This document shows, one piece after another, positions 3,222 through 35,243 of a stretch of DNA of 64,000 bases. The DNA comes from Candidatus Omnitrophota bacterium. GTDB taxonomy: Bacteria; Omnitrophota; Gorgyraeia; Gygaellales; Profunditerraquicolaceae. Each line of letters opens with the position of its first letter. The first letter of the stretch is position 1. Location of the stretch: positions 66,896-130,895 of the forward strand of contig JBDRKE010000010.1 of the NCBI GenBank assembly GCA_043814315.1, given 5' to 3'. The notes beneath the pieces are model-generated. The model searched no databases. It was not told where the DNA came from and saw only the letters and a list, made by a program, of their open reading frames with translations. The translations under genes and the position numbers were made by a program.

Positions 3222-4499
3222 ATGCACGACTTTAAATATAAAAACAATCAGCTTTATTGCGAACAGGTTAAAGTCGAGGATTTAGCCAGGAAATTCGGCA
3301 CGCCTCTTTACGTCTACAGTTACCGTACTTTGATAGACCATTTCCTTAAACTGCAACATGCTTTTAAGAGCATAAATCCCCTGATCTGTTTCTCCGCAAA
3401 ATCCAATTCCAATCTGGCTATCCTGAAAGCCCTGGTGGATAAGGGGGCGGGCCTGGATATCGTTTCGGGGGGTGAGCTTTACAGGGCGCTTCGCGTGGGT
3501 TGCCCGCCCGAAAGAATCGTCTATGCTTCCGTCGGGAAAACCGAGCGCGAGATAGAAGAGGCTATCCGCCGAAGGATCCTTTTCTTTAATGTAGAAAGCA
3601 CAGCGGAATTGGAAAATATCAACCGTATAGCCAGAAGACTCAAACGGATTACGCGCCTGGCCATACGCATCAACCCGGATGTTGAGCCAAAAACCCACAG
3701 GTATATTACCACGGGAAAATTGACCAATAAATTCGGCATAGATTTCAGAAGCGCCTATCAGATTTTAATGGTGCGCCAAGCCCTCTCGCATGTGAAAATA
3801 TCCGGTTTGCATATCCACATCGGCTCTCAGATAACAGAAAGTGCTCCTTATGTTGCCGCTATGACCAAAATGGCAGCGTTTATTGAAAAACTGAGGAAGA
3901 AAGGAATAGGCCTTGAGTATCTTAATATCGGGGGCGGCCTGGGTATTGTCTATAATCACGAAACTCCGCAAACAGCCGTCCACTTTGCCGGTAAGGTCTT
4001 GCCTTTGCTTAAAAGGACAGGTTTAAAGATTATCTTAGAGCCAGGCAGATTCATTGTCGGCAATGCCGGTATCCTGGTTACAAAAGTGTTGTATCTTAAA
4101 TCGAGCCCTAGAAAGAAATTTGTCATTGTCGATGCGGGAATGAATGACTTGATCCGGCCTGCTTTGTATAACGCCTATCATCAGATTCTGCCCTTACGCA
4201 ATACGCAATACGCAATACGCAATACGCAGAAAGTCGATATAGTGGGCCCGATATGCGAAAGTGGCGATTTCTTTGCCAAAGAAAGGCCATTGCCTCAAGT
4301 CAAAGAAGGCCAGTATCTGGCAGTCATGAGTGCGGGCGCTTACGGTTTTAGCATGGCCTCTAATTATAATTCGCGAAAGAGGCCGCAGGAAATCATGGTC
4401 TTAAAGAATAAGTCCTTTGTCATAAGAAAAAGAGAGAACGAAAAAGATTTGGTTTGTAACGAAGTCATCCCGTCTTTTCTGTTTAAGGATACAGTATGA
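3222..4499 (+). CDS. lysA: diaminopimelate decarboxylase
   Basis: 425 aa. Conserved blocks GTPLYVY, FSAKSNSN and GPICESGD, within a lysine-operon context. Confidence 0.9.
   Translation: MHDFKYKNNQLYCEQVKVEDLARKFGTPLYVYSYRTLIDHFLKLQHAFKSINPLICFSAKSNSNLAILKALVDKGAGLDIVSGGELYRALRVGCPPERIVYASVGKTEREIEEAIRRRILFFNVESTAELENINRIARRLKRITRLAIRINPDVEPKTHRYITTGKLTNKFGIDFRSAYQILMVRQALSHVKISGLHIHIGSQITESAPYVAAMTKMAAFIEKLRKKGIGLEYLNIGGGLGIVYNHETPQTAVHFAGKVLPLLKRTGLKIILEPGRFIVGNAGILVTKVLYLKSSPRKKFVIVDAGMNDLIRPALYNAYHQILPLRNTQYAIRNTQKVDIVGPICESGDFFAKERPLPQVKEGQYLAVMSAGAYGFSMASNYNSRKRPQEIMVLKNKSFVIRKRENEKDLVCNEVIPSFLFKDTV
4196..4228 (+). repeat. heptanucleotide tandem repeat (acgcaat, about 4.7 copies) inside lysA
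   Basis: Read directly: acgcaat x4 followed by acgca. It is translated in frame as RNTQYAIRNTQ, just upstream of the conserved VDIVGPICESGD block. Confidence 0.9.
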
Positions 4500-5335
4500 A
4501 AAAAATAGAGTTTACCAAGATGGTCGCTTCCGGGAATGATTTCGTTGTTGCTGAGAAAAAACAACTATCCGCTATCCGCTATCCGCTATCCGCTATAGCT
4601 AATCAGATATGCAATAGGAAGTATGGTATAGGCGCTGACGGGTTGCTTATTCTTGAGAAAACAAAGGCAGCGGATATCAGGATGCGCGTGTTTAACGCCG
4701 ATGGTTCAGAAGCCGAGATGTGCGGGAATGGGGCAAGGTGCGTCGCCCTGTGGTTGAGTTCAAAGTTCCTGCCTGCCCGGCAGGCAGGCAAAGTTCATGG
4801 TTTAGAGTATAAAATCCAAACAAAAGCCGGCATCATTAAAGCCCAAGTCAATGGCGCATTAATAAGAATAAAGCTGACTGACCCCGCCGCTATAAAATTA
4901 AACGTACCCATCAGGATAAACAAGAAAATGCTGCACGTTAATTTTGTCAACACGGGGGTTCCTCATGCCGTGATATTTGTGGAGGGGTTGGATAAAATAG
5001 AAGTTGTAAGTTTGGGCAGGCAGGTGCGTTTCCATAAGGCGTTCTCGCCCGCAGGGGCCAATGTGGATTTTGTGGAAGCCTTAAATGATCATACTCTCGG
5101 ATTGAGAACATATGAGAGGGGTGTTGAGGATGAAACTCTGGCCTGCGGCACAGGAGCGGTTGCCTCGGCTTTAGCATACGTTATGCGCTACGCGCGAAAC
5201 GCCAAACAAATAAGAGTGCATACCCAGGGCAAGGAGATATTAAAAGTCTATTTTGAGAGAACAGGCCATAAATTAAAGAATGTTTGGTTAGAAGGAAAAA
5301 CGAAGGTTATTTGCAAAGGAGCGTATTATGTTTAA
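4496..5335 (+). CDS. dapF: diaminopimelate epimerase
   Basis: 279 aa. Contains SGNDFVV and the catalytic-Cys contexts MCGNGARC and ACGTGA. Confidence 0.9.
   Translation: MKKIEFTKMVASGNDFVVAEKKQLSAIRYPLSAIANQICNRKYGIGADGLLILEKTKAADIRMRVFNADGSEAEMCGNGARCVALWLSSKFLPARQAGKVHGLEYKIQTKAGIIKAQVNGALIRIKLTDPAAIKLNVPIRINKKMLHVNFVNTGVPHAVIFVEGLDKIEVVSLGRQVRFHKAFSPAGANVDFVEALNDHTLGLRTYERGVEDETLACGTGAVASALAYVMRYARNAKQIRVHTQGKEILKVYFERTGHKLKNVWLEGKTKVICKGAYYV
4565..4596 (+). repeat. heptanucleotide tandem repeat (ctatccg, about 4.5 copies) inside dapF
   Basis: Read directly: ctatccg x4 followed by ctat. It is translated in frame as LSAIRYPLSAI. Confidence 0.9.
4768..4788. repeat. 21-nt palindrome cctgcctgcc-c-ggcaggcagg inside dapF
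   Basis: The 10-bp arms are identical to the intergenic perfect palindrome at 10562..10581. It is flanked by the direct repeat caaagttc (4761..4768 and 4789..4796) and encodes part of FLPARQAGK. Confidence 0.85.
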
Positions 5336-9620: not shown

Positions 9621-9643
9621 TTTTGAATTTTGACATTTGAATT
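9621..9643. repeat. single G/T-rich repeat arm (ttttgaattttgacatttgaatt)
   Basis: Matches the reverse complement of 35101..35123 (aattcaaatgtcaaaatccaaaa) at 22 of 23 positions by eye. Confidence 0.7.
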
Positions 9644-9651
9644 GTAAAGGT

Positions 9652-10476
9652 ATGGCTAAGTTATTAAAAATTGGCATTGTCGGCTGCGGCGCTATCGGAA
9701 GCTCATTAGCCAAAACAGTCATTAAGGATTTTCAGAAGGAAGCGAAATTAACGTCGCTTTATGACATCGATAAAGAAAGGTCTGCAGTGCTTTCGAAGTC
9801 GGTCTTTGAGACGCGCAGGCTCCATGTGCATAGCCTTAAACAATTGATTTGTAAATCTGATTTGGTGATTGAGGCCAGCTCTGCCCGGGCTTCCTTCGGC
9901 ATAGCGCAGAAAGTATTGGCGCGAGGCAAGGGTGTCATGATCATGAGTGTTGGCGGAGTCGCCGGTCATATAAAGACGCTGGCCGCTTTAGCCAAGAGGC
10001 GGGGCGGCCGAGTCTACATTCCCAGCGGCGCTGTTTCGGGTATAGACGCTTTAAAAGCGGCAGGGTGTGCAAGGTTAAAAAAGGTTTGCCTGACGACGTA
10101 CAAGAATCCCGCATCTTTCAGGGGGGTAGATATCATCAACAGGAAGAAAATAGATCTGGATAAGATAAAAAAGGATACGGTCATATTCTGTGGTTCCGCA
10201 AGAGAGGCGATTCGGTTGTTTCCGCAGAATATCAATGTGGCAGGACTCCTGAGCATCGCCGGTGTCGGTCAAGACAGGACGACGGTCAAAATCATTGCAT
10301 CGCCTGCGACAAAGAAAAATATACACGAGATCCACATAGAGTCCTCGGCAGCCACAATTATGACGCGCACGCAGAATATTTTGCACCCTGATAATCCTAA
10401 GACGAGTTACCTGGCGGTGCTATCCGCGGTGGCCATGTTAAAACAGATATTAGAGCCAGTTAAAATTGGTACTTGA
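9652..10476 (+). CDS. nadX: aspartate dehydrogenase-like NAD(P)-binding protein
   Basis: N-terminus MAKLLKIGIVGCGAIG (Rossmann fold). About 275 aa, with length and layout typical of L-aspartate dehydrogenase. Assigned from family resemblance only. Confidence 0.55.
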   Translation: MAKLLKIGIVGCGAIGSSLAKTVIKDFQKEAKLTSLYDIDKERSAVLSKSVFETRRLHVHSLKQLICKSDLVIEASSARASFGIAQKVLARGKGVMIMSVGGVAGHIKTLAALAKRRGGRVYIPSGAVSGIDALKAAGCARLKKVCLTTYKNPASFRGVDIINRKKIDLDKIKKDTVIFCGSAREAIRLFPQNINVAGLLSIAGVGQDRTTVKIIASPATKKNIHEIHIESSAATIMTRTQNILHPDNPKTSYLAVLSAVAMLKQILEPVKIGT

Positions 10477-10486
10477 AATCAAAATA

Positions 10487-10610
10487 AGGTTTCATAAGGT
10501 TGCCTAAGGTTACATAATGTTCCATAAAGTTACGCCTTTGGTAACCTTACGTAACATTATGCCTGCCTGCCGGCAGGCAGGGAACCTCATGGTACCTTAT
10601 GTAACTTTAA
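10487..10610. repeat. modular hairpin element (cataaggtt-type arms, cctgcctgccggcaggcagg core)
   Basis: The left half is made of 9-10-nt units (tcataaggtt, cctaaggtt, acataatgtt, ccataaagtt). The right half holds their complements (aaccttacgt, aacattatg, aacctcatggt, accttatgt). A perfect 20-nt palindrome lies at 10562..10581. Confidence 0.8.
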
Positions 10611-10647
10611 TAATAAAATTAATAAATGAGAGGAGGTGAATTCGAAT

Positions 10648-10890
10648 ATGGCAGAAAAAGTAGTGAAGTTGGGCATCAAAAGGGAGAAAGGTTATCTCTA
10701 TTACATCGACAAAAAAGGAGATGTTTCTTGCGCCAAGATGGCTAGAGGCAAGAAAAAAGGCGGTAACCCGAAAAAAGTCGCAAAATGCGGCATCAAGAGA
10801 AAAGAGGGATACCTTTATTTTCTTGATAAAAAAGGGGATGTCTCCTGCGCCAAGATGAAAAGAGGCGGAAAAAAGAAGAAAAAAAGATAG
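10648..10890 (+). CDS. small, very basic protein made of two tandem ~38-aa repeats
   Basis: A strong SD (aggagg) lies upstream of the ATG at 10648. Repeat 1 is VKLGIKREKGYLYYIDKKGDVSCAKMARGKKKGG and repeat 2 is VAKCGIKRKEGYLYFLDKKGDVSCAKMKRGGKKKKKR. A clear terminator follows. Confidence 0.7.
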   Translation: MAEKVVKLGIKREKGYLYYIDKKGDVSCAKMARGKKKGGNPKKVAKCGIKRKEGYLYFLDKKGDVSCAKMKRGGKKKKKR

Positions 10891-11754: not shown

Positions 11755-12946
11755 CTTTTTTACGGACAAGCGTGTGTTCGTTTTTTTAGGCCTGTTTCTT
11801 GTTTCTTTCGCCCTCATCCAACTGAGTCTAAAGAACATAAACTTCGTCATCCTGGCCGATGAAGGATGTTACTTGAAATACGCTACGTTCATAGGGGATC
11901 ACGGCATAAGAGGATTCAAGAAATTATTTGAGCTTTATACGCAGGATCAAAGTAATTTCTTTCCGAACCCGCTGCGGGTAGGTTTTATCCTACTGTCGGT
12001 CTTTTGGTTGAAGGCCTTCGGGTACTCTTTTCTCGGGTTGGCCTACCTGTCTTTATTCTCATTTTTGGCCTTCTTATGCGTCAGTTATTATTTTTCCAGT
12101 AAGTATTTCGATAAAGACACAGGCTTATTCTATGTGGTCCTTCTTGCCTTTTCACCGCTTGCCTTAGGCTTTGCACGGCGCGCCATGTTGGAAAGTACGC
12201 TCCAGTTGTTTGTGGCCCTTTCCTTTTGGCTGTTCTGGAGCCTTATCCAGGAAAGAAGTTCCTTAAAGTCTGTTGTTTTCATCCTGGTTTTTAGCTTGGC
12301 CATCCTGATGAAGGAGACAGTCGTTTTGTTATCGCCAATCTTTGTTATTTTCCTTTTGCTGAACAAACTTTTATTTAAAAAAGAAGTTCGGCTCATGGAT
12401 TTTTTGACTGTTTCGGTTTTTCCTTTTTTGATCGTTGGGCTTATTTATATATCCGTGGGCGGGCTAACGAACACCCTCCAGACCATCAGGATTATCCTCC
12501 ATTCGCCGAAAACCAATCCCTACCCGATAGCCTTTGGCCAGGGGCCGTGGTTTCGTTATATCGTTGACTATATGCTGTTTTCTCCCTGGGTCCTGCTGTG
12601 TTCCGTCGGTTTTATATTTTCTTACTTTGTATCTGATAGGCGCCAAGACCTCCAGGCCTATTTCCTGGTTATGGCCATCATGAGTCTTGTGCTTTTTAAT
12701 TTTTTTACCAAGAATATACGATATGTGATGGTATTGGATATCCCCATGAGATTATTTACGGTCCTTATGTTAAAGGAGATTGTTTTTAAAAGAGTATCCA
12801 GGCACGCCACGGCGGTCCTTGCCTTGCTGGTTTTAGGGATAGCCTTGTCGGATTATCTCAATTTCTATGATTTATTCTTAAAGCAGGGAATTTATGACCC
12901 CGTCAGCTACGTACTTCTTAAATCCAAACGATTCATCCCGTTTTAA
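11732..12946 (+). CDS. polytopic membrane protein, GT-C (ArnT/PMT_2-like) glycosyltransferase candidate
   Basis: About 400 aa with 10 or more hydrophobic segments. It overlaps the upstream GT2 gene, a pairing typical of lipid-linked sugar donor plus GT-C transferase. Confidence 0.5.
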   Translation: MEKRSISNFFTDKRVFVFLGLFLVSFALIQLSLKNINFVILADEGCYLKYATFIGDHGIRGFKKLFELYTQDQSNFFPNPLRVGFILLSVFWLKAFGYSFLGLAYLSLFSFLAFLCVSYYFSSKYFDKDTGLFYVVLLAFSPLALGFARRAMLESTLQLFVALSFWLFWSLIQERSSLKSVVFILVFSLAILMKETVVLLSPIFVIFLLLNKLLFKKEVRLMDFLTVSVFPFLIVGLIYISVGGLTNTLQTIRIILHSPKTNPYPIAFGQGPWFRYIVDYMLFSPWVLLCSVGFIFSYFVSDRRQDLQAYFLVMAIMSLVLFNFFTKNIRYVMVLDIPMRLFTVLMLKEIVFKRVSRHATAVLALLVLGIALSDYLNFYDLFLKQGIYDPVSYVLLKSKRFIPF

Positions 12947-12980
12947 ACAAAAGACAACTTTTTTGAAAGCGAGCGTTCCT

Positions 12981-15854
12981 ATGCATAATCATGACGCTAT
13001 TGTTATCCATGGTGCTAAAGAGCACAACCTTAAAAATATAAATCTTATCCTACCGCGCCAGAGACTGATTGTTGTTACAGGGTTATCTGGTTCGGGTAAA
13101 TCAAGCCTCGCCTTTGATACCATCTACGCGGAAGGCCAGCGTCGATTCGTGGAGAGCCTTTCCAGCTACGCGCGTCAGTTTTTAGAACAATTACAGAAGC
13201 CCGATGTCGAATATATCGGCGGATTATCGCCGACCATTGCCATTGAACAGCGTACAGCAGGCGGCAATCCGCGTTCCACGGTAGCCACCCAAACCGAGAT
13301 CTACGATTATTTAAGATTGCTTTTTGCCCGCATCGGAAGGGTTTATTGTTATCGGTGTCAACGGCCGATCAACAGACAAAGTTCCCAAGAGATTGTTGAT
13401 AGAATCATGGCCATGCCGGCCCAGACAGAGATGCAAATACTAGCTCCTGTTATCTCAGGAAGAAAAGGGGAATATAAAGAGATCTTCAGTTGGATTCAAA
13501 AATCAGGGTTCCTGCGTTGTCGCGTTGACGGTAAGATTTACGAATTGCCGTTAGATTTAAAGTTAGCAAAATATAAAATGCATCATATCGAGGTGGTCGT
13601 AGATAGATTAGTCCTAAGCCCGCAAGTAAAGAAAAGACTTACGGATTCCATCGAGACGGCACTTAAAGTAGGCAAAGGCACGGTTATTATTAGCCAGCTA
13701 GCCAGTTACCCAATTACCCTATCGAACCGGCAAACCGGCCAATCGGCCAACCGGCCAACCGGCAAACCGGCAAATCGGCCAACCGACTTAGTCTTCAGCG
13801 AACAGTACGCCTGCACAAAATGCGGGATCAGCTATGCACAAGTCCAGCCGCGCAATTTTTCTTTTAATTCACCCTACGGCGCCTGCCCGGAGTGCCACGG
13901 CCTTGGCACAAAACTAGAGTTTGATCCTGACTTAGTTATTTCGGACAGAAGCAAATCCATCCAGGAAGGAGCGCTTGAGCCCTGGAAGAGGGGAGGCAGG
14001 GGCTACATCCTCTATTATCGCTGGCTCATCCGGGAGCTGTCTTACAAGATGCATTTTGATTTAGACACTCCGTTTAAGAACCTGAGAAAGGAAGTGCAGA
14101 AGGCCGTACTTTTTGGGACGGATGAAGAGGTCAACGGCAAGCCCTTCGAAGGCGTGATTCCCCATCTGGAAAGGTTATTCCGGGAAACGGATAGCGATTA
14201 TTTAAAAGAAGAGATATCCAAATTCATGTCGAGCCTGAGTTGTTCCTTGTGCCAGGGGGCCAGACTTAAAAAGGAAAGCTTGTCTGTGAAGATTCAAGGC
14301 AAGAATATTTGGCAGATCGCCCAGATGTCTATCAAAGAAGCCAGAGGCTTCTTTAAAGGTCTGGATTTAAGCGAAAAAGAAAAAACGATTGCGCATCAGG
14401 CCTTGAAAGAGATTGTCCAGAAATTACAGTTTTGCGTGGATGTGGGGTTGGAGTATTTAACGCTGGACAGAAGAAGCTCGACGCTTTCCGGCGGAGAGGC
14501 GCAGAGGATTCGCCTGGCCACTCAGGTTGGATCCGGCCTTGTCGGAGTGTTGTATGTATTGGATGAGCCCAGTATCGGCCTGCACCAAAGGGACAACAAT
14601 AAATTGCTTTCGACATTGGAGGCGTTACGGGATCTGGGCAACACGTTGATTGTTGTGGAGCACGACGAGAGTACAATTCTTTCCTCTGACTATATCGTGG
14701 ATTTGGGGCCGGGAGCTGGCCGGCACGGCGGGGAAGTCGTATTCTGTGGCACAAAGGAAGAATTATTAAGGCATCCGGAGTCGCTGACGGCGAAATATTT
14801 AAGGCGCGAATTAAAGATCGAGATCCCTAAGAAGAGAAGGCCCTGGCAAGACAGGAAATTCCTTGTGGTTACCGGAGCCAGAGAGCACAATCTTAAAAAC
14901 ATAGAAGTGAAATTTCCTCTGGGTCTTTTTATCTGCGTGACGGGAGTTTCTGGTTCGGGCAAGTCCACTCTGGTCGATGAGATCCTGTTCAGAAGCCTCG
15001 CGCAAAAACACTACAAATCCAAAGATAAACCGGGGCTTCACGATAAGATTACAGGTATAGAGCTTATCGATAAAGTGATTGTCGTGGATCAGTCTCCCAT
15101 AGGCAGGACTCCCCGCTCGAATCCCGCAACCTACACAGGAATGTTTGGCCCTATCAGGGATTTATTCAGCAAGCTTCCCGAAGCCAAGGTGCGCGGATTT
15201 AAACCCGGCAGATTTTCTTTTAACGTAAAAGGGGGCCGTTGCGAGGCGTGCTCCGGGGATGGCATCAAGAAAATCGAGATGCATTTTCTTCCGGATGTGT
15301 ATGTGAAGTGCGATATCTGCAAGGGGAACAGGTTCAACGAATCCACCCTGGAAGTCAAATTCAAAGGCCAATCCATAGCGGATGTCTTAAGGATGACCGT
15401 AGAGGAGGCCTTGGACTTATTTGGCAATGTGCCAAAGATAAAGAACACGCTGGGCTATCTTTATGACGTAGGCTTGGGGTATATGACGCTGGGGCAGGCC
15501 GCCACAACGCTTTCCGGCGGAGAGGCACAGCGCATTAAGTTATCTAGCGAGCTGAGCAAGCGCTCTACGGGAAAGACCCTGTACATTTTGGATGAGCCGA
15601 CAACGGGATTGCATTTTGCCGATGTAGACAAGCTGCTTTGCGTGCTCCAAAGGTTAGTCGACAAAGGCAACACCGTGGTCGTTATCGAACATAACTTAGA
15701 AGTCATTAAATGTGCTGATTATATTATCGATCTTGGGCCTGAGGGGGGAGATAGAGGCGGAGAATTGGTGGTAGCGGGGACTCCCGAAGCGTTGCTTCGC
15801 TGCAAGGCGTCGTTTACGGCCGATGCCCTGAGAAAGGTGTTGAAGAGGCGCTGA
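12981..15854 (+). CDS. uvrA: excinuclease ABC subunit A
   Basis: N-terminus MHNHDAIVIHGAKEHNLKNI, two Walker A motifs (GLSGSGKSS and GVSGSGKST), two LSGGE signatures and zinc-finger Cys pairs. The ATG at 12981 is preferred over the longer ORF from 12894. Confidence 0.95.
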   Translation: MHNHDAIVIHGAKEHNLKNINLILPRQRLIVVTGLSGSGKSSLAFDTIYAEGQRRFVESLSSYARQFLEQLQKPDVEYIGGLSPTIAIEQRTAGGNPRSTVATQTEIYDYLRLLFARIGRVYCYRCQRPINRQSSQEIVDRIMAMPAQTEMQILAPVISGRKGEYKEIFSWIQKSGFLRCRVDGKIYELPLDLKLAKYKMHHIEVVVDRLVLSPQVKKRLTDSIETALKVGKGTVIISQLASYPITLSNRQTGQSANRPTGKPANRPTDLVFSEQYACTKCGISYAQVQPRNFSFNSPYGACPECHGLGTKLEFDPDLVISDRSKSIQEGALEPWKRGGRGYILYYRWLIRELSYKMHFDLDTPFKNLRKEVQKAVLFGTDEEVNGKPFEGVIPHLERLFRETDSDYLKEEISKFMSSLSCSLCQGARLKKESLSVKIQGKNIWQIAQMSIKEARGFFKGLDLSEKEKTIAHQALKEIVQKLQFCVDVGLEYLTLDRRSSTLSGGEAQRIRLATQVGSGLVGVLYVLDEPSIGLHQRDNNKLLSTLEALRDLGNTLIVVEHDESTILSSDYIVDLGPGAGRHGGEVVFCGTKEELLRHPESLTAKYLRRELKIEIPKKRRPWQDRKFLVVTGAREHNLKNIEVKFPLGLFICVTGVSGSGKSTLVDEILFRSLAQKHYKSKDKPGLHDKITGIELIDKVIVVDQSPIGRTPRSNPATYTGMFGPIRDLFSKLPEAKVRGFKPGRFSFNVKGGRCEACSGDGIKKIEMHFLPDVYVKCDICKGNRFNESTLEVKFKGQSIADVLRMTVEEALDLFGNVPKIKNTLGYLYDVGLGYMTLGQAATTLSGGEAQRIKLSSELSKRSTGKTLYILDEPTTGLHFADVDKLLCVLQRLVDKGNTVVVIEHNLEVIKCADYIIDLGPEGGDRGGELVVAGTPEALLRCKASFTADALRKVLKRR
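13725..13786 (+). repeat. degenerate octanucleotide tandem repeat (cMaaYcgg, about 7.5 units) inside uvrA
   Basis: aaccgg caaaccgg ccaatcgg ccaaccgg ccaaccgg caaaccgg caaatcgg ccaaccga, translated as NRQTGQSANRPTGKPANRPT. The same unit occurs non-coding at 51302..51332 and flanks the mtaB insert. Confidence 0.9.
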
Positions 15855-15874: not shown

Positions 15875-18520
15875 ATGGGTAAATCACAAATCCCAATTTC
15901 CAAATCCCAAACAAATCCAAAATTCAATGCTTCGACTGCGCTTGCCATTGACACCGAGGCGGCCCTTCGTTTCGTTTCACTCGCTGTGGGTCGTCCCGAG
16001 CGAAGTCGAGGGACGAAGCCGAGGTGCCAAATCCAAAAAATTCAAATTGGCAGATTACTTGTTGTTTTTTTTGTGCTTGTATTTGCTTCGAACTACGAAC
16101 TTCGAACTCCGTACTTTGCTTATGCCCAGGATCCCAAAGAGGAAGAGGCACTCTTCGTTGCAAAGAAAGCCTTTGATGATGGTTTCTATGATGTCAGTCA
16201 GAACTTATTAGAGCGATTCCTCATTCAATACCCGCGTTCTTCAAAGACAGCGGAAATTCATCTATTGATGGGGCGTTCTTTTTTTTACCAAAATAGATTC
16301 TTGGATGCGCTTTCCAAATTTGAAGAACTTTTGGGCCAGCCCCAGGCTAAAAACCTTAAAGATGCCCTTTTTTACTGGATAGCCGAAGTCCACTTCAAGG
16401 GCAATAGTTTCAATAAGGCGGCCAGTTTTTACAAAAAGATTATTGATGAATTCCCGTCTTCTTCCTATTTAGGCGCTTCCTATTATTCATTGGCGTGGTG
16501 TTACTTCCAGGAAAGAAAATTTGAAGAGGCCCTCGCTTATTTCAAGATCATCGAAGAAAGGTACCTTCAAGAATCCTCTTTTCAAGATGCACCTTTAAAG
16601 ATCATCGAGTGCCTTTACAATTTAAAAGATTATGAGGGACTCAAAAAAAAGGTGAGGTCTTACTTGAATCTTTATCCCAAGAGCGCAGAGCAATCGCCTT
16701 ACCCCTATTTTTATTTGGCTGAAGCTGATTATTACCTCGGTAATTTTCAAGAAGCGATCGAAGAATATTCTTCGATTCTTAAGAGCAGCCTTGATCCCAA
16801 GGCGCAGGCGCTCTCGAAGATGGGTATGGCATGGTCTTATCTTAAATTGAAAAAATACAAAGAGGCAGAAAGCGCATTTTTGGATATCAAAGAAGGACAC
16901 CTTGAGAAAAGAAGCCAGGAGATCTTGCGGCTGGGTGAGGCTATCCTCATGGTTGAGACGAACCGCGTCAACGAAGCCAAAGGCATTTATGAGCAACTGC
17001 TGAGCCGTTCGGACGATCCCCTTGTTTTAATTCAGGCCTATCTGGGGAAAGCAGACGCCCTTTATAACCTTGCAGAATATCATGAGGCGATCAGCGTATA
17101 TAAAGAGGCCTTGAGTAAGTTTAGCCCCGGGACCGTTCCTCAGGAGATCATGGATAAAATACACTATAGCCTTAGCTGGACCTATTTAAAGCAGGGGGAA
17201 TTCAAGGAGGCCATCAAAGAGTTTCAGAGAATCGTCAAAGAAACAGACGATAAAATCGTTAAAGTCAGCGCGCTTTGTCAAATAGGTGATGCGTATCAGG
17301 ATTCCGGAGATTATACCGAAGCCCAGGAAGCCTATTCCGTCATATTAAAGGATTACCCCGATAATTTCTATAGCGATTATGTGCAATACCAGTTAGGCCT
17401 GACGCTGCTTAAAGCCTCTAACTATGAAGGGGCTATTATGAGCTTTCAGGCCCTCAAAAGAAATTTTCCCCAATCCAAACTTTTAGACGACGCCACGTAC
17501 GCGCTTGGGTTAGCCTATTTCCAAAGACAGGATTATAATTCCAGCCGTGTCCTCTTTGAAAGTTTTGAGCAGGAATTCAAGGATAGTCCACTTAAGCCCC
17601 AGGCCCTTTATCTTCTTGGCACCTGTTTCTATAACCTGCGTGAATTTGCCAAGGCGATTGAGGTGTTTAAGAATGTCATCAGATTGTATAGCCAGGATAC
17701 CGATTTGGTCCAGAAGGCAGAATATGAAATAGCCGATTGTTATGACCAGATGGGAGACGAAAAAGAGGCGGTGAACCGATTCAATATCTTGCGTTCCAAA
17801 TATCCTGATTCGAGCCTGACCCCCGAAGTCATGTGGTGGCTGGGAGAATACTATTACAAACATAACGAATTGGAGTTGGCGCGCCGGTACTTTTCGACCC
17901 TCATCAGAGACTTTCCCAAAAGCCCGCTGGTCGCGGATTCCTATTATGCCGTAGGGACAAGTTTTGAAGAGGAATCCAGGCATGAGGAGGCAATAGAGAA
18001 TTTTCGGAAAGTCATGGATTTGGGCAAAACCGACCTTAATGGCCAGGCTGCTATCGCTATCGCAGACATATACGTCAAACAGGAAAACCTGGAATCAGCC
18101 ATCAAGGCTTATCAGGAGATTAGCAGAGAATATCCGAATCTGACCCATTTGATTTATCCCAAGATGGCCCAGCTTTACTACAAAACTGCAGATTTCAGTC
18201 AAGCTTTAAATTTTTATCGCAAGAGCCTTGATGTGGTATCGGTAAGAGAAATGGGGAATATCCATTTTAAAATAGCCGAAGTGTTGCAAGCACAGGGAAC
18301 TCTGGATGAGGCTATAGAGGAATACCTGAAAGTCGCCTACCTTTATCCAGAGAATGACTTGCTCGCCATTAAGGCCCTTTTAAGAGTAGCTCAGATCTAT
18401 GAAGATAAAGAGAATTTTAAAGAGGCCGCGCGTATCTATGAAAAAATAGTTTCAATAGACGCTGAAGAAGCCAAGTATGCACAAGAGAGGATAGACTGGA
18501 TAAAGGTACACGTAAAATAA
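15875..18520 (+). CDS. large TPR-repeat protein (probably exported); N-terminus uncertain
   Basis: About 800 aa of tandem TPR-like repeats (the YbgF/CpoB-style pattern A..Y..A....g.y.eA). The first ~70 codons of the ORF read through an intergenic repeat element. No canonical start lies just before the hydrophobic LLVVFFVLVFAS segment. Confidence 0.7.
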   Translation: MGKSQIPISKSQTNPKFNASTALAIDTEAALRFVSLAVGRPERSRGTKPRCQIQKIQIGRLLVVFFVLVFASNYELRTPYFAYAQDPKEEEALFVAKKAFDDGFYDVSQNLLERFLIQYPRSSKTAEIHLLMGRSFFYQNRFLDALSKFEELLGQPQAKNLKDALFYWIAEVHFKGNSFNKAASFYKKIIDEFPSSSYLGASYYSLAWCYFQERKFEEALAYFKIIEERYLQESSFQDAPLKIIECLYNLKDYEGLKKKVRSYLNLYPKSAEQSPYPYFYLAEADYYLGNFQEAIEEYSSILKSSLDPKAQALSKMGMAWSYLKLKKYKEAESAFLDIKEGHLEKRSQEILRLGEAILMVETNRVNEAKGIYEQLLSRSDDPLVLIQAYLGKADALYNLAEYHEAISVYKEALSKFSPGTVPQEIMDKIHYSLSWTYLKQGEFKEAIKEFQRIVKETDDKIVKVSALCQIGDAYQDSGDYTEAQEAYSVILKDYPDNFYSDYVQYQLGLTLLKASNYEGAIMSFQALKRNFPQSKLLDDATYALGLAYFQRQDYNSSRVLFESFEQEFKDSPLKPQALYLLGTCFYNLREFAKAIEVFKNVIRLYSQDTDLVQKAEYEIADCYDQMGDEKEAVNRFNILRSKYPDSSLTPEVMWWLGEYYYKHNELELARRYFSTLIRDFPKSPLVADSYYAVGTSFEEESRHEEAIENFRKVMDLGKTDLNGQAAIAIADIYVKQENLESAIKAYQEISREYPNLTHLIYPKMAQLYYKTADFSQALNFYRKSLDVVSVREMGNIHFKIAEVLQAQGTLDEAIEEYLKVAYLYPENDLLAIKALLRVAQIYEDKENFKEAARIYEKIVSIDAEEAKYAQERIDWIKVHVK
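15881..16050. repeat. modular repeat element (aaatcccaaa arm, gagcgaagtcgagggacgaag core)
   Basis: A/C-rich arm at 15881..15927, a GC-rich core with cgaag-periodic inverted segments at 15960..16024, and a second short A/C arm at 16027..16050. Confidence 0.75.
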
Positions 18521-18536: not shown

Positions 18537-18731
18537 ATAAATCCCAGATCCAAAATAAATCCCTGCCTGTGGCAGACAGGCAAAATCCCAAATCCAAAAC
18601 TATTTGGGATTTTGAAATTGGCACTTCGGGTTCGCCTCAGTGCCAATGGTGAGCGAAGTCCTGAGCTTGTCGAAGGACGAAGTCGAACCGTGGGATTTGT
18701 TTGGTAGTATTGGTATTATTTGGATTTTGTC
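18537..18731. repeat. modular hairpin element (aaatcccaaa / tttgggattt arms with two GC-rich cores)
   Basis: Left arm ataaatcccagatccaaaataaatcc, a gcctgtggcagacaggc hairpin, aaaatcccaaatccaaaac/tatttgggattttg, the core ggtgagcgaagtcctgagcttgtcgaaggacgaagtcgaac, then gggatttgtttggtagtattggtatt. Confidence 0.8.
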
Positions 18732-21878: not shown

Positions 21879-22079
21879 ATGACGAGATTGATCGATATTA
21901 ATGAATTAGCCGACTATTTACGATTAAAGAAACAGACCATTTATAATTGGCTGCATCAGTCAAAGATTTCTGGTATTAAGGTGGGTGGGGTGTGGAGGTT
22001 TGACCGTAAAGATGTGGATAGTTGGTTGAAAAGCAGAAGGCGATTGTCAAAAGACTTAAAATCCGGAGAAAAGCAATGA
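21879..22079 (+). CDS. excisionase/MerR-type helix-turn-helix DNA-binding protein
   Basis: 66 aa. LIDINELADYLRLKKQTIYNWLHQSKISGIKVGGVWRFDRKDVDSWL is the HTH_17 pattern. Its stop overlaps the next start (ATGA). Confidence 0.7.
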   Translation: MTRLIDINELADYLRLKKQTIYNWLHQSKISGIKVGGVWRFDRKDVDSWLKSRRRLSKDLKSGEKQ

Positions 22080-23644
22080 GTTCGTTAGGAATATATTTTG
22101 GCCCTAAGTTGATAAAGATTGTGGAATGCCAAGGCCACAATCTCAAAAATGTCACCCAGATTCATCAGTCGACAATCTCTGCGGGAGAATTGGAAGAAAA
22201 AGTCCCCGCTGAAGTTAAAACCATTGAATTCGTCGCTCTTTTTAAAGATGAGCTGCGAAGAAACAAAATTGAAGCCAAACAGGCCACGCTCTCTCTTTCC
22301 GGAAGGGATTTGATTATTCGGACCTTTGAGATACCCATGATTCCGCGCGAAGAAATAGAAAGCGCCGTAAATTTTGAAGCCAAAAAATACATCCCCTTTA
22401 AAGTCGAAGAACTGGTAACGGATTTTCAGCTAAAATTTGACAAGTCCAGCCGTACAAATCTGGTTCTTTTTATGGGGTTAAAAAAAGAGACTTTAGATAA
22501 ATATGTTTCTATTCTTAATCAGTTGAACATCAAGATTCATGCCATCGAATATTCGGCTTTTAGCATGATAAGATGTTTGAAGCTTAGCGGCTTAAGCGAT
22601 AGAGGAACTATAGGGATTTTGGGTGCTGACCTGACAGGGGAGGATGAGGTTAATTTTACGGTTTTGGAAGATGGTTTTCCGCTGTTTAGCCGGGATATTT
22701 CTTTGGCAGGAGGACCTGAAAGCTTAGGCAGGCTAAAAGAGACAGGGCCGTTGGAAGCTTTAGAAAAGCTTAAGACGGAGATCCATGTTTCTTTAGATTA
22801 CTACAACCGTAAATACCCCACCAAAAATATCAAGAAAATATTTCTTATTTCCGACCCTGATAATCGCCTGGAATTGGAAGCGTTTATTAAGGAAACGGGT
22901 TTATTGGTTCAATTTGTTAATACGTCTAAATACTCGAAGGAATCCCCGGCTTACTCTTTAAGTTTTTTAAAAGCCTACAGCAGTTCTTTATCTAAAACGA
23001 TAAGGCTGTTGCTGAAGGTCAATCTATTAGCAGCAAAAGAAAAGTTAAAATTAGCAAAAGAAAAAGCTGTTTTCAAGGAGAGGCTTTCCCTATTTGAGAA
23101 CTTAAGGCTGGATTATAGAGTCCTTTTTCTGGGCCTCTTGTTATGCGTGGGCGCTTACGGTTACGGCGTTTATCAAATGCAACCTTTACGTAAGGACCTT
23201 GTTGATATCCATTCCAGAAGATTGGCGGTTTCCAGCGTAAATGCAGGCGGCACTCAAGAAGAATTAACCGATGCCGCTGTCCAGGCTAAAAGGAGGCTTG
23301 GGTCCTTGGAAAACCTTATTAAGGGGCAAGTGTATCTTACGGAAATATTTAATATCCTGCCCCAGGATCTCCCCAGGGGCCTATGGTTCACTAATTTTTC
23401 TCTTGGCAAGAAAGAGGAAACGGGAACCGAGCTTATCCTGGGAGGCAGGGTGGATCTGGGGGATAGCGATGAAGAATTCAAGACCGTAAACGATTTTCTT
23501 TCGAACCTGGAAAGACGCACGGAATTCGTCAAATACTTTAAACAGGTCAGCCTCATCTCCTTAGAGAATGTACAATTAGCGAATGAGCTCTATCCGTATA
23601 CCCAGTTTGTCATTTCTTGTAAAAGTTATTCGACTGAGGAATAG
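22076..23644 (+). CDS. PilM-PilN fusion protein (type IV pilus assembly)
   Basis: The N-terminal ~330 aa are PilM-like (RTFEIPMIPREEIESAVNFEAKKYIPF). These are followed by VNLL, a TM segment (VLFLGLLLCVGAYGYGVY) and a PilN-like periplasmic domain. Confidence 0.75.
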   Translation: MSSLGIYFGPKLIKIVECQGHNLKNVTQIHQSTISAGELEEKVPAEVKTIEFVALFKDELRRNKIEAKQATLSLSGRDLIIRTFEIPMIPREEIESAVNFEAKKYIPFKVEELVTDFQLKFDKSSRTNLVLFMGLKKETLDKYVSILNQLNIKIHAIEYSAFSMIRCLKLSGLSDRGTIGILGADLTGEDEVNFTVLEDGFPLFSRDISLAGGPESLGRLKETGPLEALEKLKTEIHVSLDYYNRKYPTKNIKKIFLISDPDNRLELEAFIKETGLLVQFVNTSKYSKESPAYSLSFLKAYSSSLSKTIRLLLKVNLLAAKEKLKLAKEKAVFKERLSLFENLRLDYRVLFLGLLLCVGAYGYGVYQMQPLRKDLVDIHSRRLAVSSVNAGGTQEELTDAAVQAKRRLGSLENLIKGQVYLTEIFNILPQDLPRGLWFTNFSLGKKEETGTELILGGRVDLGDSDEEFKTVNDFLSNLERRTEFVKYFKQVSLISLENVQLANELYPYTQFVISCKSYSTEE

Positions 23645-23648
23645 CCCT

Positions 23649-24155
23649 ATGGATGCATTTGAATTCATGACCAAGCATAAAAATAGAATTTTCAATCTTT
23701 TATTTTTCGCCTTATCTCTTTTTATTGCCGGCAAGATTTATAATAAGCAACTCAGAGAGGTGGATCTATTAATCGAAAAGAAGAATTTGGAATCGAAAAG
23801 AAATGAAATATTGGAAAGCATCAGCAGCACCGAGAAAAAAATCGATGCCTATAAGAATCTCTTGGAGAGAAGAGACGTAAGCAATGTTATAAACACCATA
23901 AGCGATATTGCCAGCGCAACGGACGTTAGCATCACCTCCATGAGGCCTAACCATCAAGAAAAATATCCTGAATACGTTAAGATTCCTTATAAATTGGAAC
24001 TGGCGACTGAAAGTTATCATAACCTGGGCCGTTTTCTAAGCCGCCTGGAGAGCCATGAGGACGTTTTTATGGTGGATTCTATTGATATAAGGACACAGGA
24101 ACGCTCTGATGGATTAAAGGCCGCTTTAACCTTAAATTTAGTTGTATATAAATAA
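23649..24155 (+). CDS. PilO-like pilus assembly protein
   Basis: N-terminal TM segment, a coiled coil, then YVKIPYKLELATESYHNLGRFLSRLESHEDVFMVDSIDI, which is the PilO signature layout. Confidence 0.65.
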   Translation: MDAFEFMTKHKNRIFNLLFFALSLFIAGKIYNKQLREVDLLIEKKNLESKRNEILESISSTEKKIDAYKNLLERRDVSNVINTISDIASATDVSITSMRPNHQEKYPEYVKIPYKLELATESYHNLGRFLSRLESHEDVFMVDSIDIRTQERSDGLKAALTLNLVVYK

Positions 24156-24159
24156 CCTT

Positions 24160-24705: not shown

Positions 24706-24706
24706 A

Positions 24707-26284: not shown

Positions 26285-26286
26285 CC

Positions 26287-28008
26287 ATGCCGAAAGACAG
26301 ATATTTAAGATTAGGGGAACTCCTCATTAAAGAGGGGCTGATCAATACCGGTCAGTTAGAAAAAGCCATCAGCGCCCAAAGGCACGAGGGTGGCCGATTA
26401 GGAGAGGTTTTGGTCAGGTTGGGGTTTATCAGGGAGGACCAGGTCGTTGCTGTTCTGGGCAAGCAACTTAATATTCCTTATTTTTCTTTGGGCACGGGGA
26501 TGTTAAAACCCGCCATGGATCAGGGGCTGGAACGCCTCATCTCCGAGGATTTTGCCCTTAAGAATTCAGTCCTTCCCTTATCGCGCACCTTAAGGTCTAT
26601 TACCGTGGCGATGTCCGACCCCCTGGACCTTATCCTGGTTGATAATTTGAGAAAATTGACGGGGTGCGAAATCAATCCTGTCATTGCCACCAAATCCGAT
26701 ATCGCTAAAGCCGTCGAGGCCTTTTATGGGAAGTCCGCTATGCTGAAAGAGGCGGTGGAGGCCAGTTATGACCTTTCCAAAGTCGAAGCGCCATCGGGTG
26801 ACGCGGAAACCGCTGACCAGGAGCTCTCACTCGATAAATTAATTGCCCGCGCTGAAGAGGCTCCGGTGGTGAAATTGGTAGATTTGATCGTGCGTCAGGC
26901 GATTGATGAAAGGGCTTCGGATATCCATATCGAGCCGTTCAAAGACAGGATTTCGCTTCGGTATCGAGTCGACGGCAAGCTCTATGAGATTCCTCCTCCG
27001 GCCAAACACCTGCACATGCCGATTATATCGCGCGTCAAAATTTTGTCAAAATTAGATATTGCGGAGAAGCGGCTTCCGCAAGACGGTGCCTTCTTAGTCA
27101 GGATAAACGAAAAACCGATAGATATAAGAGTTTCCACCATACCCACCATCTATGGGGAGAAGGTCGTTATGAGAATACTGGATAGGAGCGCCGTAGTTTT
27201 GGATATTAATGTTTTAGGGTTCGGCCCCAAACAACTGGAAGACATGCGCCGCTCGATCAATGCTCCTTACGGACTGGTATTCTTAACCGGGCCTACGGGT
27301 AGCGGGAAAACCACGACCCTTTACGCCATATTAAACGAAATAAAAAATCCCACAAAAAACATAGTGACTGTCGAGGATCCGGTCGAATACAAATTAGAAG
27401 GCATTAATCAAGTCCAGGTCAAGCCTGAGATCGGGCTTACCTTTGCTGCGGCACTGCGCAGTTTCTTAAGGCAGGACCCGGATATCATGTTAGTCGGCGA
27501 GGTAAGGGATTTAGAAACGGCAGAGATTTGCATCCGTTCTGCTTTAACCGGACACCTCGTGCTAAGCACACTGCACACTAATGATGCGCCTTCAGCCGTG
27601 AACCGCCTCATGGATATCGGCATTGAGCCTTACATGCTGGCGCCATCTTTACTGTGCGTAGTGGGGCAGCGTCTCTTAAGGAAACTTTGCCCTGAATGCA
27701 AAGAGGCTTATGAGCCCGCCCAGGAAGAGCGTGACAGCGTAAAGTTAAAAGCAGATTTGATCTACCGGCCGAAAGGCTGTACGAAGTGCAACAATACGGG
27801 GTTTAACGGCCGGGTCTGTATCGCCGAGGTTATGATAGTCAACCAGGAGATTCAGGACTTGATTAACCAGAAGGCGCCTTTTCAGAAAACAAGGGCTGCC
27901 GCCAAGGCGCACGGGATGGAGACGCTTTATGAATCGGCCATAAAGAAGGTCGAACAGGGGGTTACCTCCCTTGAAGAGGCCCTTTCAGTTACGCTGGGTG
28001 CTGATTAA
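26287..28008 (+). CDS. GspE/PilB family type II/IV secretion ATPase
   Basis: 573 aa. T2SSE_N-like N-terminus, Walker A motif GPTGSGKTTT, Walker B/Asp box, His box, and a tetracysteine motif (CPECK...CTKCNNTG). Confidence 0.93.
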   Translation: MPKDRYLRLGELLIKEGLINTGQLEKAISAQRHEGGRLGEVLVRLGFIREDQVVAVLGKQLNIPYFSLGTGMLKPAMDQGLERLISEDFALKNSVLPLSRTLRSITVAMSDPLDLILVDNLRKLTGCEINPVIATKSDIAKAVEAFYGKSAMLKEAVEASYDLSKVEAPSGDAETADQELSLDKLIARAEEAPVVKLVDLIVRQAIDERASDIHIEPFKDRISLRYRVDGKLYEIPPPAKHLHMPIISRVKILSKLDIAEKRLPQDGAFLVRINEKPIDIRVSTIPTIYGEKVVMRILDRSAVVLDINVLGFGPKQLEDMRRSINAPYGLVFLTGPTGSGKTTTLYAILNEIKNPTKNIVTVEDPVEYKLEGINQVQVKPEIGLTFAAALRSFLRQDPDIMLVGEVRDLETAEICIRSALTGHLVLSTLHTNDAPSAVNRLMDIGIEPYMLAPSLLCVVGQRLLRKLCPECKEAYEPAQEERDSVKLKADLIYRPKGCTKCNNTGFNGRVCIAEVMIVNQEIQDLINQKAPFQKTRAAAKAHGMETLYESAIKKVEQGVTSLEEALSVTLGAD

Positions 28009-29237
28009 TGCCAAAATTTTTCTACATTGCCAGGAATAAGCTCGGCAAGAAAGATACCGGAGCCGAAGAGGCTGCCACACAGGAAGAAGCCATTCTTAGG
28101 TTGCAGTCTAGGGATCTGGTGGTCATCAGCATCCTACCTGCCTTTAAAGAATCCGGGGTCAACCAGGAAGTCATATCAAAGGCGAAGTTTAAACCAAAGC
28201 ACTTCCGTATTTCAGGGGAAGACCTGGTTCTTTTCTGCAGGCAGTTAGCCACGCTTTTAGGCGCAGGCGTAACGATCTTGAAGAGTCTGGATATTATTTC
28301 GCAACAGGTATCCAGCCGCAGGCTTTATGAGGTTATCAAAGAGTTACAGAAAAATATGGAAGCAGGATTAAGTTTTCATGAAGCTATATCAAAGCACCGT
28401 TTGATATTTTCTGAATTGTGGGTTAATCTTGTGGAAAGCGGGGAGGCCTCCGGAAATTTAGCCATGGTTTTGAGCCGCCTGGCCAGCTACTTAGAGAGAA
28501 ATGCGGCGTTTAAGAAAAAGATTGTTTCTGCTTTGATTTACCCTACCATCTTGATGCTGGTCGGGACAGGCGCACTTTTGTTCTTGACCGTTAAGATTAT
28601 ACCTACCTTTGCCGTCTTATTTCAGGGTTTCGATGTAAAGATGCCCTTTTTGACATCCGTGCTTATAGCCGTAAGCGGCTTTATGAGAAAATACCTGCTC
28701 ACTATTTTTGTCTTAGGGATTATCGGGTTCTTCATTTTTAAAAATTATATTTCTACAAAGCAGGGCCGAAGAGCCTTTGAGAAAATTTTGTTCAATCTTC
28801 CGGTCTTCGGAGAATTTTTTCGTGTGCTGATTGTGGAGCGCTTCACTTCTGAAATGGCCACTCTCGTTGAAAGTGGCGTGCCCATATTGTATTCTTTGGA
28901 AATCACGGAGCATAGCGTCGGAAATCTGACGCTGGGGGAGATCATCGGCAGAATCAAAGACGATGTGCGCGAAGGCAAACCTTTGTCCCAGCCGCTGGAC
29001 AGAAGCGGATTCTTCGAGCCTATGGCCGTACAAATGGTGACGATCGGAGAAGAAATCGGAGAATTATCCAGTATGTTTAAGAAATTGAATTCTTTTTATC
29101 AGGAATACGTGGATACGTTTTTGACCCGGTTTACGGTCATGTTTGAGCCGATAATGCTTATTTTTATGGGTGTCGTGATCGGCATGATGGTGGTGGGGAT
29201 GTTTTTACCTATATTCCAGCTTGTCCAGATACGCTAG
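28008..29237 (+). CDS. GspF/PilC family platform protein
   Basis: 409 aa with two T2SSF repeats and three TM segments. The start overlaps the ATPase stop. Confidence 0.92.
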   Translation: MPKFFYIARNKLGKKDTGAEEAATQEEAILRLQSRDLVVISILPAFKESGVNQEVISKAKFKPKHFRISGEDLVLFCRQLATLLGAGVTILKSLDIISQQVSSRRLYEVIKELQKNMEAGLSFHEAISKHRLIFSELWVNLVESGEASGNLAMVLSRLASYLERNAAFKKKIVSALIYPTILMLVGTGALLFLTVKIIPTFAVLFQGFDVKMPFLTSVLIAVSGFMRKYLLTIFVLGIIGFFIFKNYISTKQGRRAFEKILFNLPVFGEFFRVLIVERFTSEMATLVESGVPILYSLEITEHSVGNLTLGEIIGRIKDDVREGKPLSQPLDRSGFFEPMAVQMVTIGEEIGELSSMFKKLNSFYQEYVDTFLTRFTVMFEPIMLIFMGVVIGMMVVGMFLPIFQLVQIR

Positions 29238-29257
29238 GTTCCATACGCATAATTTAT

Positions 29258-29285
29258 TTGACTTGATTGTTTTTTGTGATATTCT
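29258..29285 (+). promoter_or_regulatory. sigma70-like promoter candidate (extended -10) for the pilin operon
   Basis: TTGACT (29258..29263), a 16-nt spacer ending in TGa, then TATTCT (29280..29285). This predicts a leader of roughly 275 nt before the pilin ATG. Confidence 0.45.
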
Positions 29286-29557: not shown

Positions 29558-29568
29558 AGGAGGAAAAG

Positions 29569-35098: not shown

Positions 35099-35243
35099 TA
35101 AATTCAAATGTCAAAATCCAAAAAGAATCCCTGCCTTGCCGGCAGGCAGGCAAGGCAGGGAGGCAAATGTTAAAACAGAAGATTCATCGTTTTGAATTTT
35201 GTGCTTTGTGCTTATTTTGAATTTTGAGCTTTGTCATTTGAAT
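35099..35243. repeat. modular hairpin element (aattcaaatgtcaaaatccaaaa arm, ccctgccttgcc-ggcaggca-ggcaaggcaggg core)
   Basis: A 12-bp palindromic stem core lies at 35129..35160. The right arm ttttgaattttgtgctttgtgcttattttgaattttgagctttgtcatttgaat complements the left arm. Confidence 0.8.

Follow-up and report, generated by a model that had tools for sequence, protein, structure and literature searches.

Tiny palindromic repeats that lie within genes are known from a few lineages, namely the Rickettsia palindromic elements (RPEs), intragenic copies of repetitive extragenic palindromic (REP) sequences and the small dispersed repeats (SDRs) of Nostoc. Here we describe a 21-nt palindrome inside dapF, the gene for diaminopimelate epimerase, in a stretch of 64,000 nt from an Omnitrophota genome (the window, to which all bare coordinates refer). 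In all probability it is one of many scattered copies of a miniature palindromic insertion element that is non-autonomous and has the 20-bp core CCTGCCTGCCGGCAGGCAGG.

The closest known elements appear to be the SDRs of the Nostocaceae, to which we liken the palindrome by behaviour and not by sequence. Elhai and colleagues reportedly described SDR1-8 in 2008 as dispersed, hairpin-forming units of ~20-27 nt, often nested in tandem heptameric repeats. The element in dapF shares with them its tiny size (20 or 21 nt), its hairpin, its nesting in heptamers, its presence or absence in related genomes and its precise insertion without an obvious transposase. Reports of SDRs are limited to the Nostocaceae (PMC5861425), where SDR5 enters HIP1 after its third base and before its fourth (PMC4390886); the repeats are also cited in PMC2884548. 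In contrast to the SDRs, the present palindrome has an Omnitrophota host and occurs in many phyla and in phages, showed no HIP1-like fixed target, and is common within protein genes as a frame-compatible variant of 21 nt. No cyanobacterium-titled record was seen among the 20-mer matches listed.

REP sequences and REPINs are mobilised by REP-associated tyrosine transposases (RAYTs) of the Y1 HUH type (Di Nocera et al. 2013, PMC3733652; Bertels and Rainey 2011, PMC3116915), and the former also mentions that some REP copies lie in frame in genes for known proteins. Like the palindrome described here, REPs are GC-rich palindromes of 20-40 bp found mostly downstream of genes, with dispersed copies that are mostly extragenic and sometimes genic and in frame. 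Insertion without target duplication, as seen here, is also what would be expected of single-strand HUH transposition. However, the 122 copies compared here carry neither a GTAG/CGTC tag nor a conserved flank, and they occur as single units and not as inverted doublets (REPINs); REP families are moreover lineage-specific, whereas the 20-mer is identical across phyla. No RAYT gene was detected in the 50 open reading frames (ORFs) of the window that were scanned, and none recurred near 155 palindrome loci.

RPEs are ~100-150 bp long and known only from Rickettsia. They resemble the dapF palindrome in being selfish palindromic repeats that are translated as added residues in functional, conserved proteins; their in-frame insertion in functional genes is mentioned in PMC3733652. 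The element studied here differs in measuring 20-21 bp, in occurring in many phyla and in its link to heptamer arrays. We rejected membership of the RPEs on size (21 nt) and lineage, although in-frame insertion is a shared trait. A miniature inverted-repeat transposable element, with terminal inverted repeats, a target-site duplication and a length of 70-300 bp, was also rejected, as the element spans 20-21 bp and no array unit is added at those polymorphic sites where units can be counted. The GC clusters of yeast mitochondria are mobile GC-rich hairpin clusters, and a study of placozoan mitochondria reportedly deals with repeat expansion. These organelle clusters are likewise short GC-rich palindromes spread into the intergenic and coding DNA of an AT-richer genome, but their setting is organellar and their sequences are others; we know of no link between them and heptamer arrays.

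In our literature searches, the 20-mer string and the peptides LPAGQAG, LPARQAG and PACRQAG were found in no paper, and nothing relevant was returned on Omnitrophica palindromic repeats or on heptanucleotides combined with hairpins. The kind of element is known; the family, its range over phyla and phages, its split into 20- and 21-nt forms and its coupling to heptamer arrays appear undescribed.

A seven-residue insert in DapF

The dapF gene (4496..5335, + strand) encodes an intact protein of 279 residues belonging to PF01678, as judged from an ortholog alignment, a HMMER match to a solved DapF (E = 2.5e-37) and an AlphaFold2 model. Its sequence matches an NCBI protein from a Candidatus Omnitrophota metagenome-assembled genome at 100% identity. 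Both catalytic cysteines, in the CGNG and ACGTG motifs, are present and invariant in the alignment (Cys76 and Cys217), and the other invariant residues are all kept. Within the gene, at 4768..4788 and with no strand of its own, lies the palindrome CCTGCCTGCC-c-GGCAGGCAGG, that is, the 20-nt core with one additional central base. Its arms (4768-4777 and 4779-4788) surround the central c at 4778 and are fully complementary (100%, 10+1+10). Read in frame, the palindrome encodes L92-P-A-R-Q-A-G98 of DapF (..SSKF LPARQAG KVHG..; peptide stretch spanning the insert, ..SSKFLPARQAGKVHG..). An earlier note on this DNA had reported the 10-bp arms, the central c and the in-frame translation, and in all of these it was correct. 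Because the copy has the 21-nt form, exactly seven codons are added and dapF is left intact. As RNA, the palindrome is predicted to form a hairpin of 9 bp with a 3-nt loop, with a folding energy of -17.6 kcal/mol for a 61-nt stretch and -16.9 kcal/mol for the centroid hairpin alone.

HMMER alignments to the solved DapF structures 2otn and 5ha4 place a gap of 7 residues exactly at the palindrome, in line with the statement in the earlier note that the E. coli loop is about 7 residues shorter. No internal insert of at least 4 residues was present in 82 of 120 Omnitrophota DapF homologs, and the window DapF minus 21 nt has the consensus loop length. The proposal that a repeat of the intergenic type sits in frame in a DapF loop is thus supported by a 21-nt, seven-residue insert in the ortholog alignment; an equal loop in relatives lacking the repeat would have spoken against it, and the relatives without the palindrome have a shorter loop. 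In the AlphaFold2 model (mean predicted local distance difference test score, pLDDT, 86), residues 92-98 lie between helix 77-91, which begins just past the catalytic Cys76, and strand 101-109, and the pLDDT falls below 50 at residues 95-99. A low-confidence loop is therefore predicted where a surface loop had been suspected. In DapF, each of the two central helices is capped at its N-terminus by a catalytic cysteine, and the C-termini of these helices, hence also the insert loop, face away from the active site. The palindrome is thus an insertion in a surface loop, where it appears to be tolerated.

The remaining 38 of the 120 homologs carry 47 internal inserts, which fall at three places only: the N-terminal loop (8 inserts), the palindrome-site loop (24) and a loop that follows the second of the catalytic helices (15). 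Palindrome-type peptides make up 31 of the 47, and 18 of these 31 are exactly 7 residues long. The peptides PACRQAG, LPAGRQG and CLPAGR.. show that the palindrome is read in each of its three frames; what is conserved is therefore the DNA and not the peptide. At insertion hot spot 1 the window gene has a heptamer array, CTATCCG x4.6 (4565..4596, + strand; ..LSAIRYPLSAIA..), recognised as a tandem repeat and from the inserts of homologs; palindrome-type inserts stand there beside 'IRYP' in homologs P0037, P0042 and P0046.

The palindrome is bordered by the direct repeat 'caaagttc' (4761-4768 and 4789-4796) at a spacing of 28 nt. The earlier note had described this repeat correctly and had argued that its spacing is not explained by a simple insertion with duplication, which holds. 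As read from the sequence, both flanks are parts of a decayed heptanucleotide tandem array on the + strand: the left part, tTGAGT TCAAAGT T (4754..4767), contains the left 'caaagtt' (4761-4767), and the right part, CAAAGT TCATGGT TTAGAGT (4789..4808), contains the right one (4789-4795). Removal of 4768-4788 restores a continuous array of period 7, tTGAGT TCAAAGT T|CAAAGT TCATGGT TTAGAGT. Because the 'caaagtt' flanks belong to this array and no heptamer was gained with the hairpin, the frame puzzle is resolved, and the insert is therefore the 21 nt alone. A 7-bp target-site duplication was ruled out, the count of array units being equal in filled and empty alleles.

Gain or loss of hairpins at heptamer arrays in relatives

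In related genomes, hairpins come and go as steps of 21 or 42 nt without target-site duplication (with one mixed change of 4+8 nt), and these differences are confined to the three DapF loops and the equivalent of an array in lysA. Among three syntenic genomes that are 95-97% identical over 7.6 kb, all intragenic indels derive from the palindrome/array system: +21 nt in lysA (empty site ccacgcc|ccacgg), +42 nt in dapF, and 4+8-nt and +21-nt changes in dapF loop 3. The number of heptamer units at the lysA site and at the +42 dapF site is the same whether filled or empty. A second lineage (81-91% identical) showed changes of +21, +21 and +42 nt, again with no array unit added where units could be counted. 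Abutting direct repeats of 7 nt flank 11.7% of 20-mers and 14.7% of 21-mers, compared with 1.6% of random sites.

The codon position that holds the palindrome in the window carries perfect 4-unit heptamer arrays in several relatives: GGTTCAA (L004), CGCAAAC (L162), CACCGCT (L001), CCAACTC (L286) and AGAGTAC (L285). The unit of these loop 2 arrays differs from lineage to lineage, with or without a hairpin. In further relatives similar arrays are split by hairpins: CCTGCCTGCCGGCAGGCAaGG in L160, CCTGCCTcGCCGGCAGGCAGG in L161, the exact 20-mer in L163, two other 21-nt hairpins in L002 and a decayed 21-mer in L284. Where an array has 4 units, the hairpin repeatedly separates the second unit from the third. 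We also observed that GGTTCAA of L004 and CGCAAAC of L162 stand in genomes that are ~95% identical, the array having been rewritten wholesale with its total length unchanged (loop 2 array loci: L004:5001-5828, L162:10001-10864, L001:38-892, L285, L286).

In lysA, the window has a heptamer array TACGCAA x4.9 at 4195..4228 (+ strand), identified as a tandem repeat and by comparison with relatives, which bear 21-nt hairpins of the family there. At the equivalent position, L162 carries the identical 21-mer CCTGCCTGCCcGGCAGGCAGG and L160 two 21-nt hairpins. The perfect arrays at 4195-4228 and 4565-4596 are translated inside the essential genes lysA and dapF; because a period of 7 is not a multiple of 3, only three-unit changes keep the frame.

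Two further variations were seen in dapF. The N-terminal octamer array reads TCGTTATC x3.6 in one strain and CCGTTATC x4 in another, with every unit differing by the same base; the pair (L002:1884-2768 and L004:5001-5828) comes from strains 96.7% identical overall, so that the whole array changed in concert. In loop 3, orthologous copies of the hairpin have asymmetric loops that are reverse complements of each other, TCCGG in L004, L160 and L162 versus CCGGA in L002. The two forms are CCTGCCTG-CCGGA-CAGGCAGG and CCTGCCTG-TCCGG-CAGGCAGG, the L002 copy lying at ~2600-2640; L004 retains a 17-nt remnant in this loop, and L162 has two copies with one octamer between them.

Length and frame of gene copies

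Open frames were scored only where the GC content of the locus did not exceed 55% and enough sequence flanked the site, and at least 80 open codons were required on either side. By this measure the 20-mer is depleted from open frames (8/89, 9%, compared with 41.5% of random sites in the same loci), whereas the 21-mer is not (34/82, 41.5%, compared with 49.5% of random sites). In 24 of the 34 open-frame 21-mers the reading frame is the cysteine-free one, LPAGQAG or LPARQAG. Gene copies whose DNA was read mostly consist of the core plus one base, usually placed in the hairpin loop; the 21-nt form is the gene-compatible variant of the 20-nt core. The split between 20- and 21-nt forms and the bias towards the cysteine-free frame indicate that gene copies are translated and filtered by length and peptide, which argues against splicing or ribosomal bypass.

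Distribution across phyla and phages

At least 120 stretches of GTDB species genomes contain the exact 20-mer; by arithmetic, chance would account for about one occurrence of a 20-mer in 596 Gb. Its hosts include Patescibacteria, Bacteroidota, Planctomycetes, Omnitrophota, Gamma- and Deltaproteobacteria, Bdellovibrionales and Thermodesulfovibrio, and cultured carriers among the Bacteroidota include Winogradskyella echinorum KCTC 22026, Flagellimonas yonaguniensis 334s03, Longitalea luteola SYSU D00799 and Flavivirga sp. 57AJ16. Among viral sequences, 35 stretches contain it too, and a single contig of 29.5 kb has as many as 6 copies; two composition-matched control palindromes gave 0 and 0 viral matches. 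The 21-mer with a central C or G has at least 120 metagenome matches. The stem stops abruptly at 20 bp, without any extension, in 63% of copies. Copies are mostly single, with occasional pairs (L035, L072, L131).

On one phage contig (L149, 2284), deletion of the 20-mer from the variable loop restores a tRNA-Met gene, the only whole tRNA restored in this manner. At L034:3628, deletion yields a tRNA-Val prediction that is a partial duplicate beside an intact tRNA-Val, and a further 20-mer lies within a tRNA sequence at viral locus L126:8616. Five sites (L019:4041, L041:2127, L089:67, L103:5992, L156:515) involve 5' tRNA pieces and were left out of the evidence; in several such pieces from Patescibacteria the palindrome follows the D-loop (..TAGA|P|GC..). 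Separately, some copies sit in the middle of a second copy or of a palindrome related to it (L022:1070, L046:467; also L025, L032, L147), which points either to hairpin tips as additional targets or to growth of the palindromes from within.

Related palindromes and enrichment in the window

Dinucleotide shuffles predict 0.12 occurrences of the arm 10-mer in the window; the observed number is 7, which none of 100 shuffles reached. A general enrichment of short GC-rich hairpins was considered as the explanation and rejected (68 observed, 61.6 +/- 7 expected), so that the excess concerns this particular sequence only. The palindrome is therefore far commoner than composition predicts, a frequency matching composition having been named beforehand as an argument against the earlier note. 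Two of the seven arm matches, at 5015-5024 (dapF 'LGRQV') and 49639-49648 (RNase E/G 'AGR'), lack a facing arm and are neither palindromes nor elements; the former encodes the nearly invariant L173-G174-R175 of DapF.

The family has four members in the 64 kb, three of them intergenic, and short tandem arrays surround all four (4/4). The perfect 20-nt core palindrome at 10562..10581 (no strand) has the same arms as the dapF copy, as previously stated, and lies 86 nt past the stop of ORF 9637..10476 amid 10-nt tandem and inverted repeats (10484-10609). The two related ctgcc/ggcag hairpins that had been pointed out also exist, with limits slightly different from those first given (35129..35160 and 18565..18581). 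One is an intergenic variant hairpin, CCTGCCTG-tgg-CAGaCAGG, at 18562..18580 (no strand), nested in an AAATCCN heptamer array at ~18539-18599. The other is a compound intergenic palindrome of 34 nt, TCCCTGCCTTGCCGGC / GCAGGCAAGGCAGGGA, at 35128..35161 (no strand). Its arms of 16 nt contain a single mismatch and are separated by 2 nt, and the direct repeat CAAATGT(C/T)AAAA lies on either side of it. The intergenic copies sit 41-86 nt past the stops of + strand genes. A terminator scan gave no terminator-like site at 10400-10700 and the copies at 18562 and 35128 are followed by no T-run; the hairpins were accordingly rejected as intrinsic terminators. Apart from a tRNA, Rfam returned nothing at the gathering score, and at the E-value threshold it gave only a chance match to MIR530.

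Origin of the palindrome and alternative explanations

We propose that the dapF copy would have been inserted as a pre-formed hairpin or self-annealed duplex by trans-acting machinery unlinked to the copies. Either HUH-type single-strand 'peel and paste' or cruciform resolution followed by ligation would give clean junctions, and slippage-prone tandem arrays would be the preferred landing sites. Purifying selection would then retain copies in tolerant loops, with a length divisible by three and mostly in the cysteine-free frame. The genic element would be a tolerated passenger, and the intergenic one probably only an RNA or DNA hairpin. The 4-unit heptamer arrays may precede the hairpins, or may be left by them as products or footprints of the same process. 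A wider proposal is tentative: CCTGCCTGCCGGCAGGCAGG might be an undescribed mobile element of many phyla and phages, smaller than any with a known mechanism, that is cleanly inserted and excised at heptamer arrays by trans-acting machinery and seeds seven-residue loops in essential enzymes.

Several points weigh against an insertion element. No transposase, reverse transcriptase, HUH or integrase domain was found in the 50 window ORFs scanned (the upstream arg/lys/dap operon genes were recognised by synteny only). All-against-all BLAST of the ORFs near 155 genome and viral palindrome loci showed no recurrent gene family; only shared phage genes, in at most 8 loci, recurred. The flank profile of 122 copies has no conserved target motif, only a weak A at -1. 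No close relative of the window genome is present in the databases, the nearest DapF being 67% identical, so that the empty site of this exact copy is unseen. The presence/absence differences between relatives are not polarised and could be precise deletions. An insertion of 20 nt would shift the frame, so that 21-nt copies in an essential gene may stem from imprecise insertion or from a +1 correction. The match counts in genomes and metagenomes are lower bounds and not true copy numbers, and the cross-phylum identity of a sequence of the (CCTG)n/(CAGG)n type could be partly convergent.

Alternatively, the palindrome would have arisen in place, in slippage-prone arrays, by local template switching (quasi-palindrome correction) combined with (TGCC)n/(GGCA)n slippage, and a shared error of replication or repair would have produced the sequence convergently in many phyla. 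The core is of low complexity, (CCTG)2CC.GG(CAGG)2; longer and nested versions exist, such as the (TGCC)3(GGCA)3-like stretch at 10560-10583 and the palindromes within palindromes of L022 and L046; the loop flip between TCCGG (L004/L160/L162) and CCGGA (L002) is what intrastrand template switching would yield; array units change in concert; and neither a linked enzyme (155 loci) nor a target motif (122 flanks) was found. Nevertheless, we regard an origin in place as unlikely. Whole units of 21 or 42 nt differ among genomes that are 95-97% identical, with no intermediates, and 63% of the 20-mers are sharp-ended. The flanking heptamers share no sequence with the palindrome and thus offer no local template. 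An identical 21-mer stands in unrelated genes, the window dapF and the lysA of L162. Finally, two composition-matched palindromes of the same tetranucleotide style have no viral match compared with 35 for the 20-mer, so that composition and repeat structure alone are insufficient.

A selected function, whether as an mRNA structure tuning the lysA-dapF-dapA operon, as a protein-binding palindrome or as a useful loop of seven residues, seems improbable to us. It would fit the perfect 10/10 arms with their stable predicted RNA hairpin, the position of the intergenic copies 41-86 nt past + strand stops, where a 3' hairpin could stabilise mRNA, and the biased reading frame of gene copies. However, avoidance of cysteine explains that bias, the folding z-score of the 61-nt region is only -0.73, and neither a T-run terminator nor an Rfam family was found. 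The insert is missing from most orthologs and sits in different loops in others, all three frames are used with no peptide conserved, and the same 20-mer recurs in unrelated genes, in tRNA genes and in phages of many phyla, unlike a regulator of one operon. An artefact of metagenomic assembly or sequencing, or a coincidence of composition, is extremely improbable. The dapF allele does come from a single contig (P0001: one member, one contig), yet the shuffles never reach the observed arm count and the insert preserves the frame of an otherwise conserved gene. The element and its setting also recur in independent samples, assemblers, cultured isolates and, by their record names, apparent long-read assemblies; 4 contigs carry P0048, and the two of its locations that were listed belong to different samples.

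The palindrome bears on how the smallest palindromic repeats move, and to the known cases it adds one identical 20-bp unit across phyla and phages. It is closely tied to heptanucleotide arrays which, at fixed positions in the proteins, are replaced completely from one close relative to the next. Its machinery, if found, could account for the surplus of heptameric repeats that has long been noted in bacteria. The split into 20 and 21 nt shows selection on frame and implies that genic copies are translated, not skipped. Seven-residue loop insertions in DapF and LysA influence how genes are called, proteins aligned and structures predicted in uncultured phyla, and the carriers include cultured Flavobacteriia, which are open to experimental study.

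Other repeats in the window and its relatives

Heptamer arrays of AAATCC(A/C) or its complement occupy most intergenic spacers of the window, often on both sides of a hairpin (1599-1622, 15881-15922, 18581-18599, 33548-33603, 54631-54706, 59569-59698), and are a genome-wide intergenic repeat family. The array at 15881-15922, built on AAATCCN repeats, lies at the start of a tetratricopeptide repeat (TPR) protein (ORF 15875..18520) whose called N-terminus (15875-16050) has ~53 residues that its orthologs in L160 and L162 lack; the protein probably starts further downstream, the stretch being intergenic repeat DNA.

In uvrA (ORF 12894..15854), a 61-nt octamer array, AACCGGCN x7.6, spans 13725-13785. 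L160 and L162 have other sequences at the same UvrA position, a GGTCACA heptamer array in the case of L162. L002, L004 and L162 additionally carry in-frame inserts of 54 and 48 nt in the aspartate dehydrogenase and aminotransferase genes (alignment columns 96-114 and 362-378), absent in the window and in L160. The 54-nt insert is an imperfect inverted repeat, ACCCCACTCTTCCCTTAA..TTAAGGAAGGGCGGGGT, and the two inserts are a second, larger family of genic hairpin inserts.

The window also contains two same-strand clusters resembling type IV pilus and type II secretion genes (22022-31862 and 39554-48912), which include PilM, PilO, a secretin, T2SSE, T2SSF and several prepilins. Within the first, a 29/59-nt tandem repeat of 2.6 to 5 copies lies at 29408-29558, between a T2SSF-like gene (28008..29237) and prepilin-type genes.

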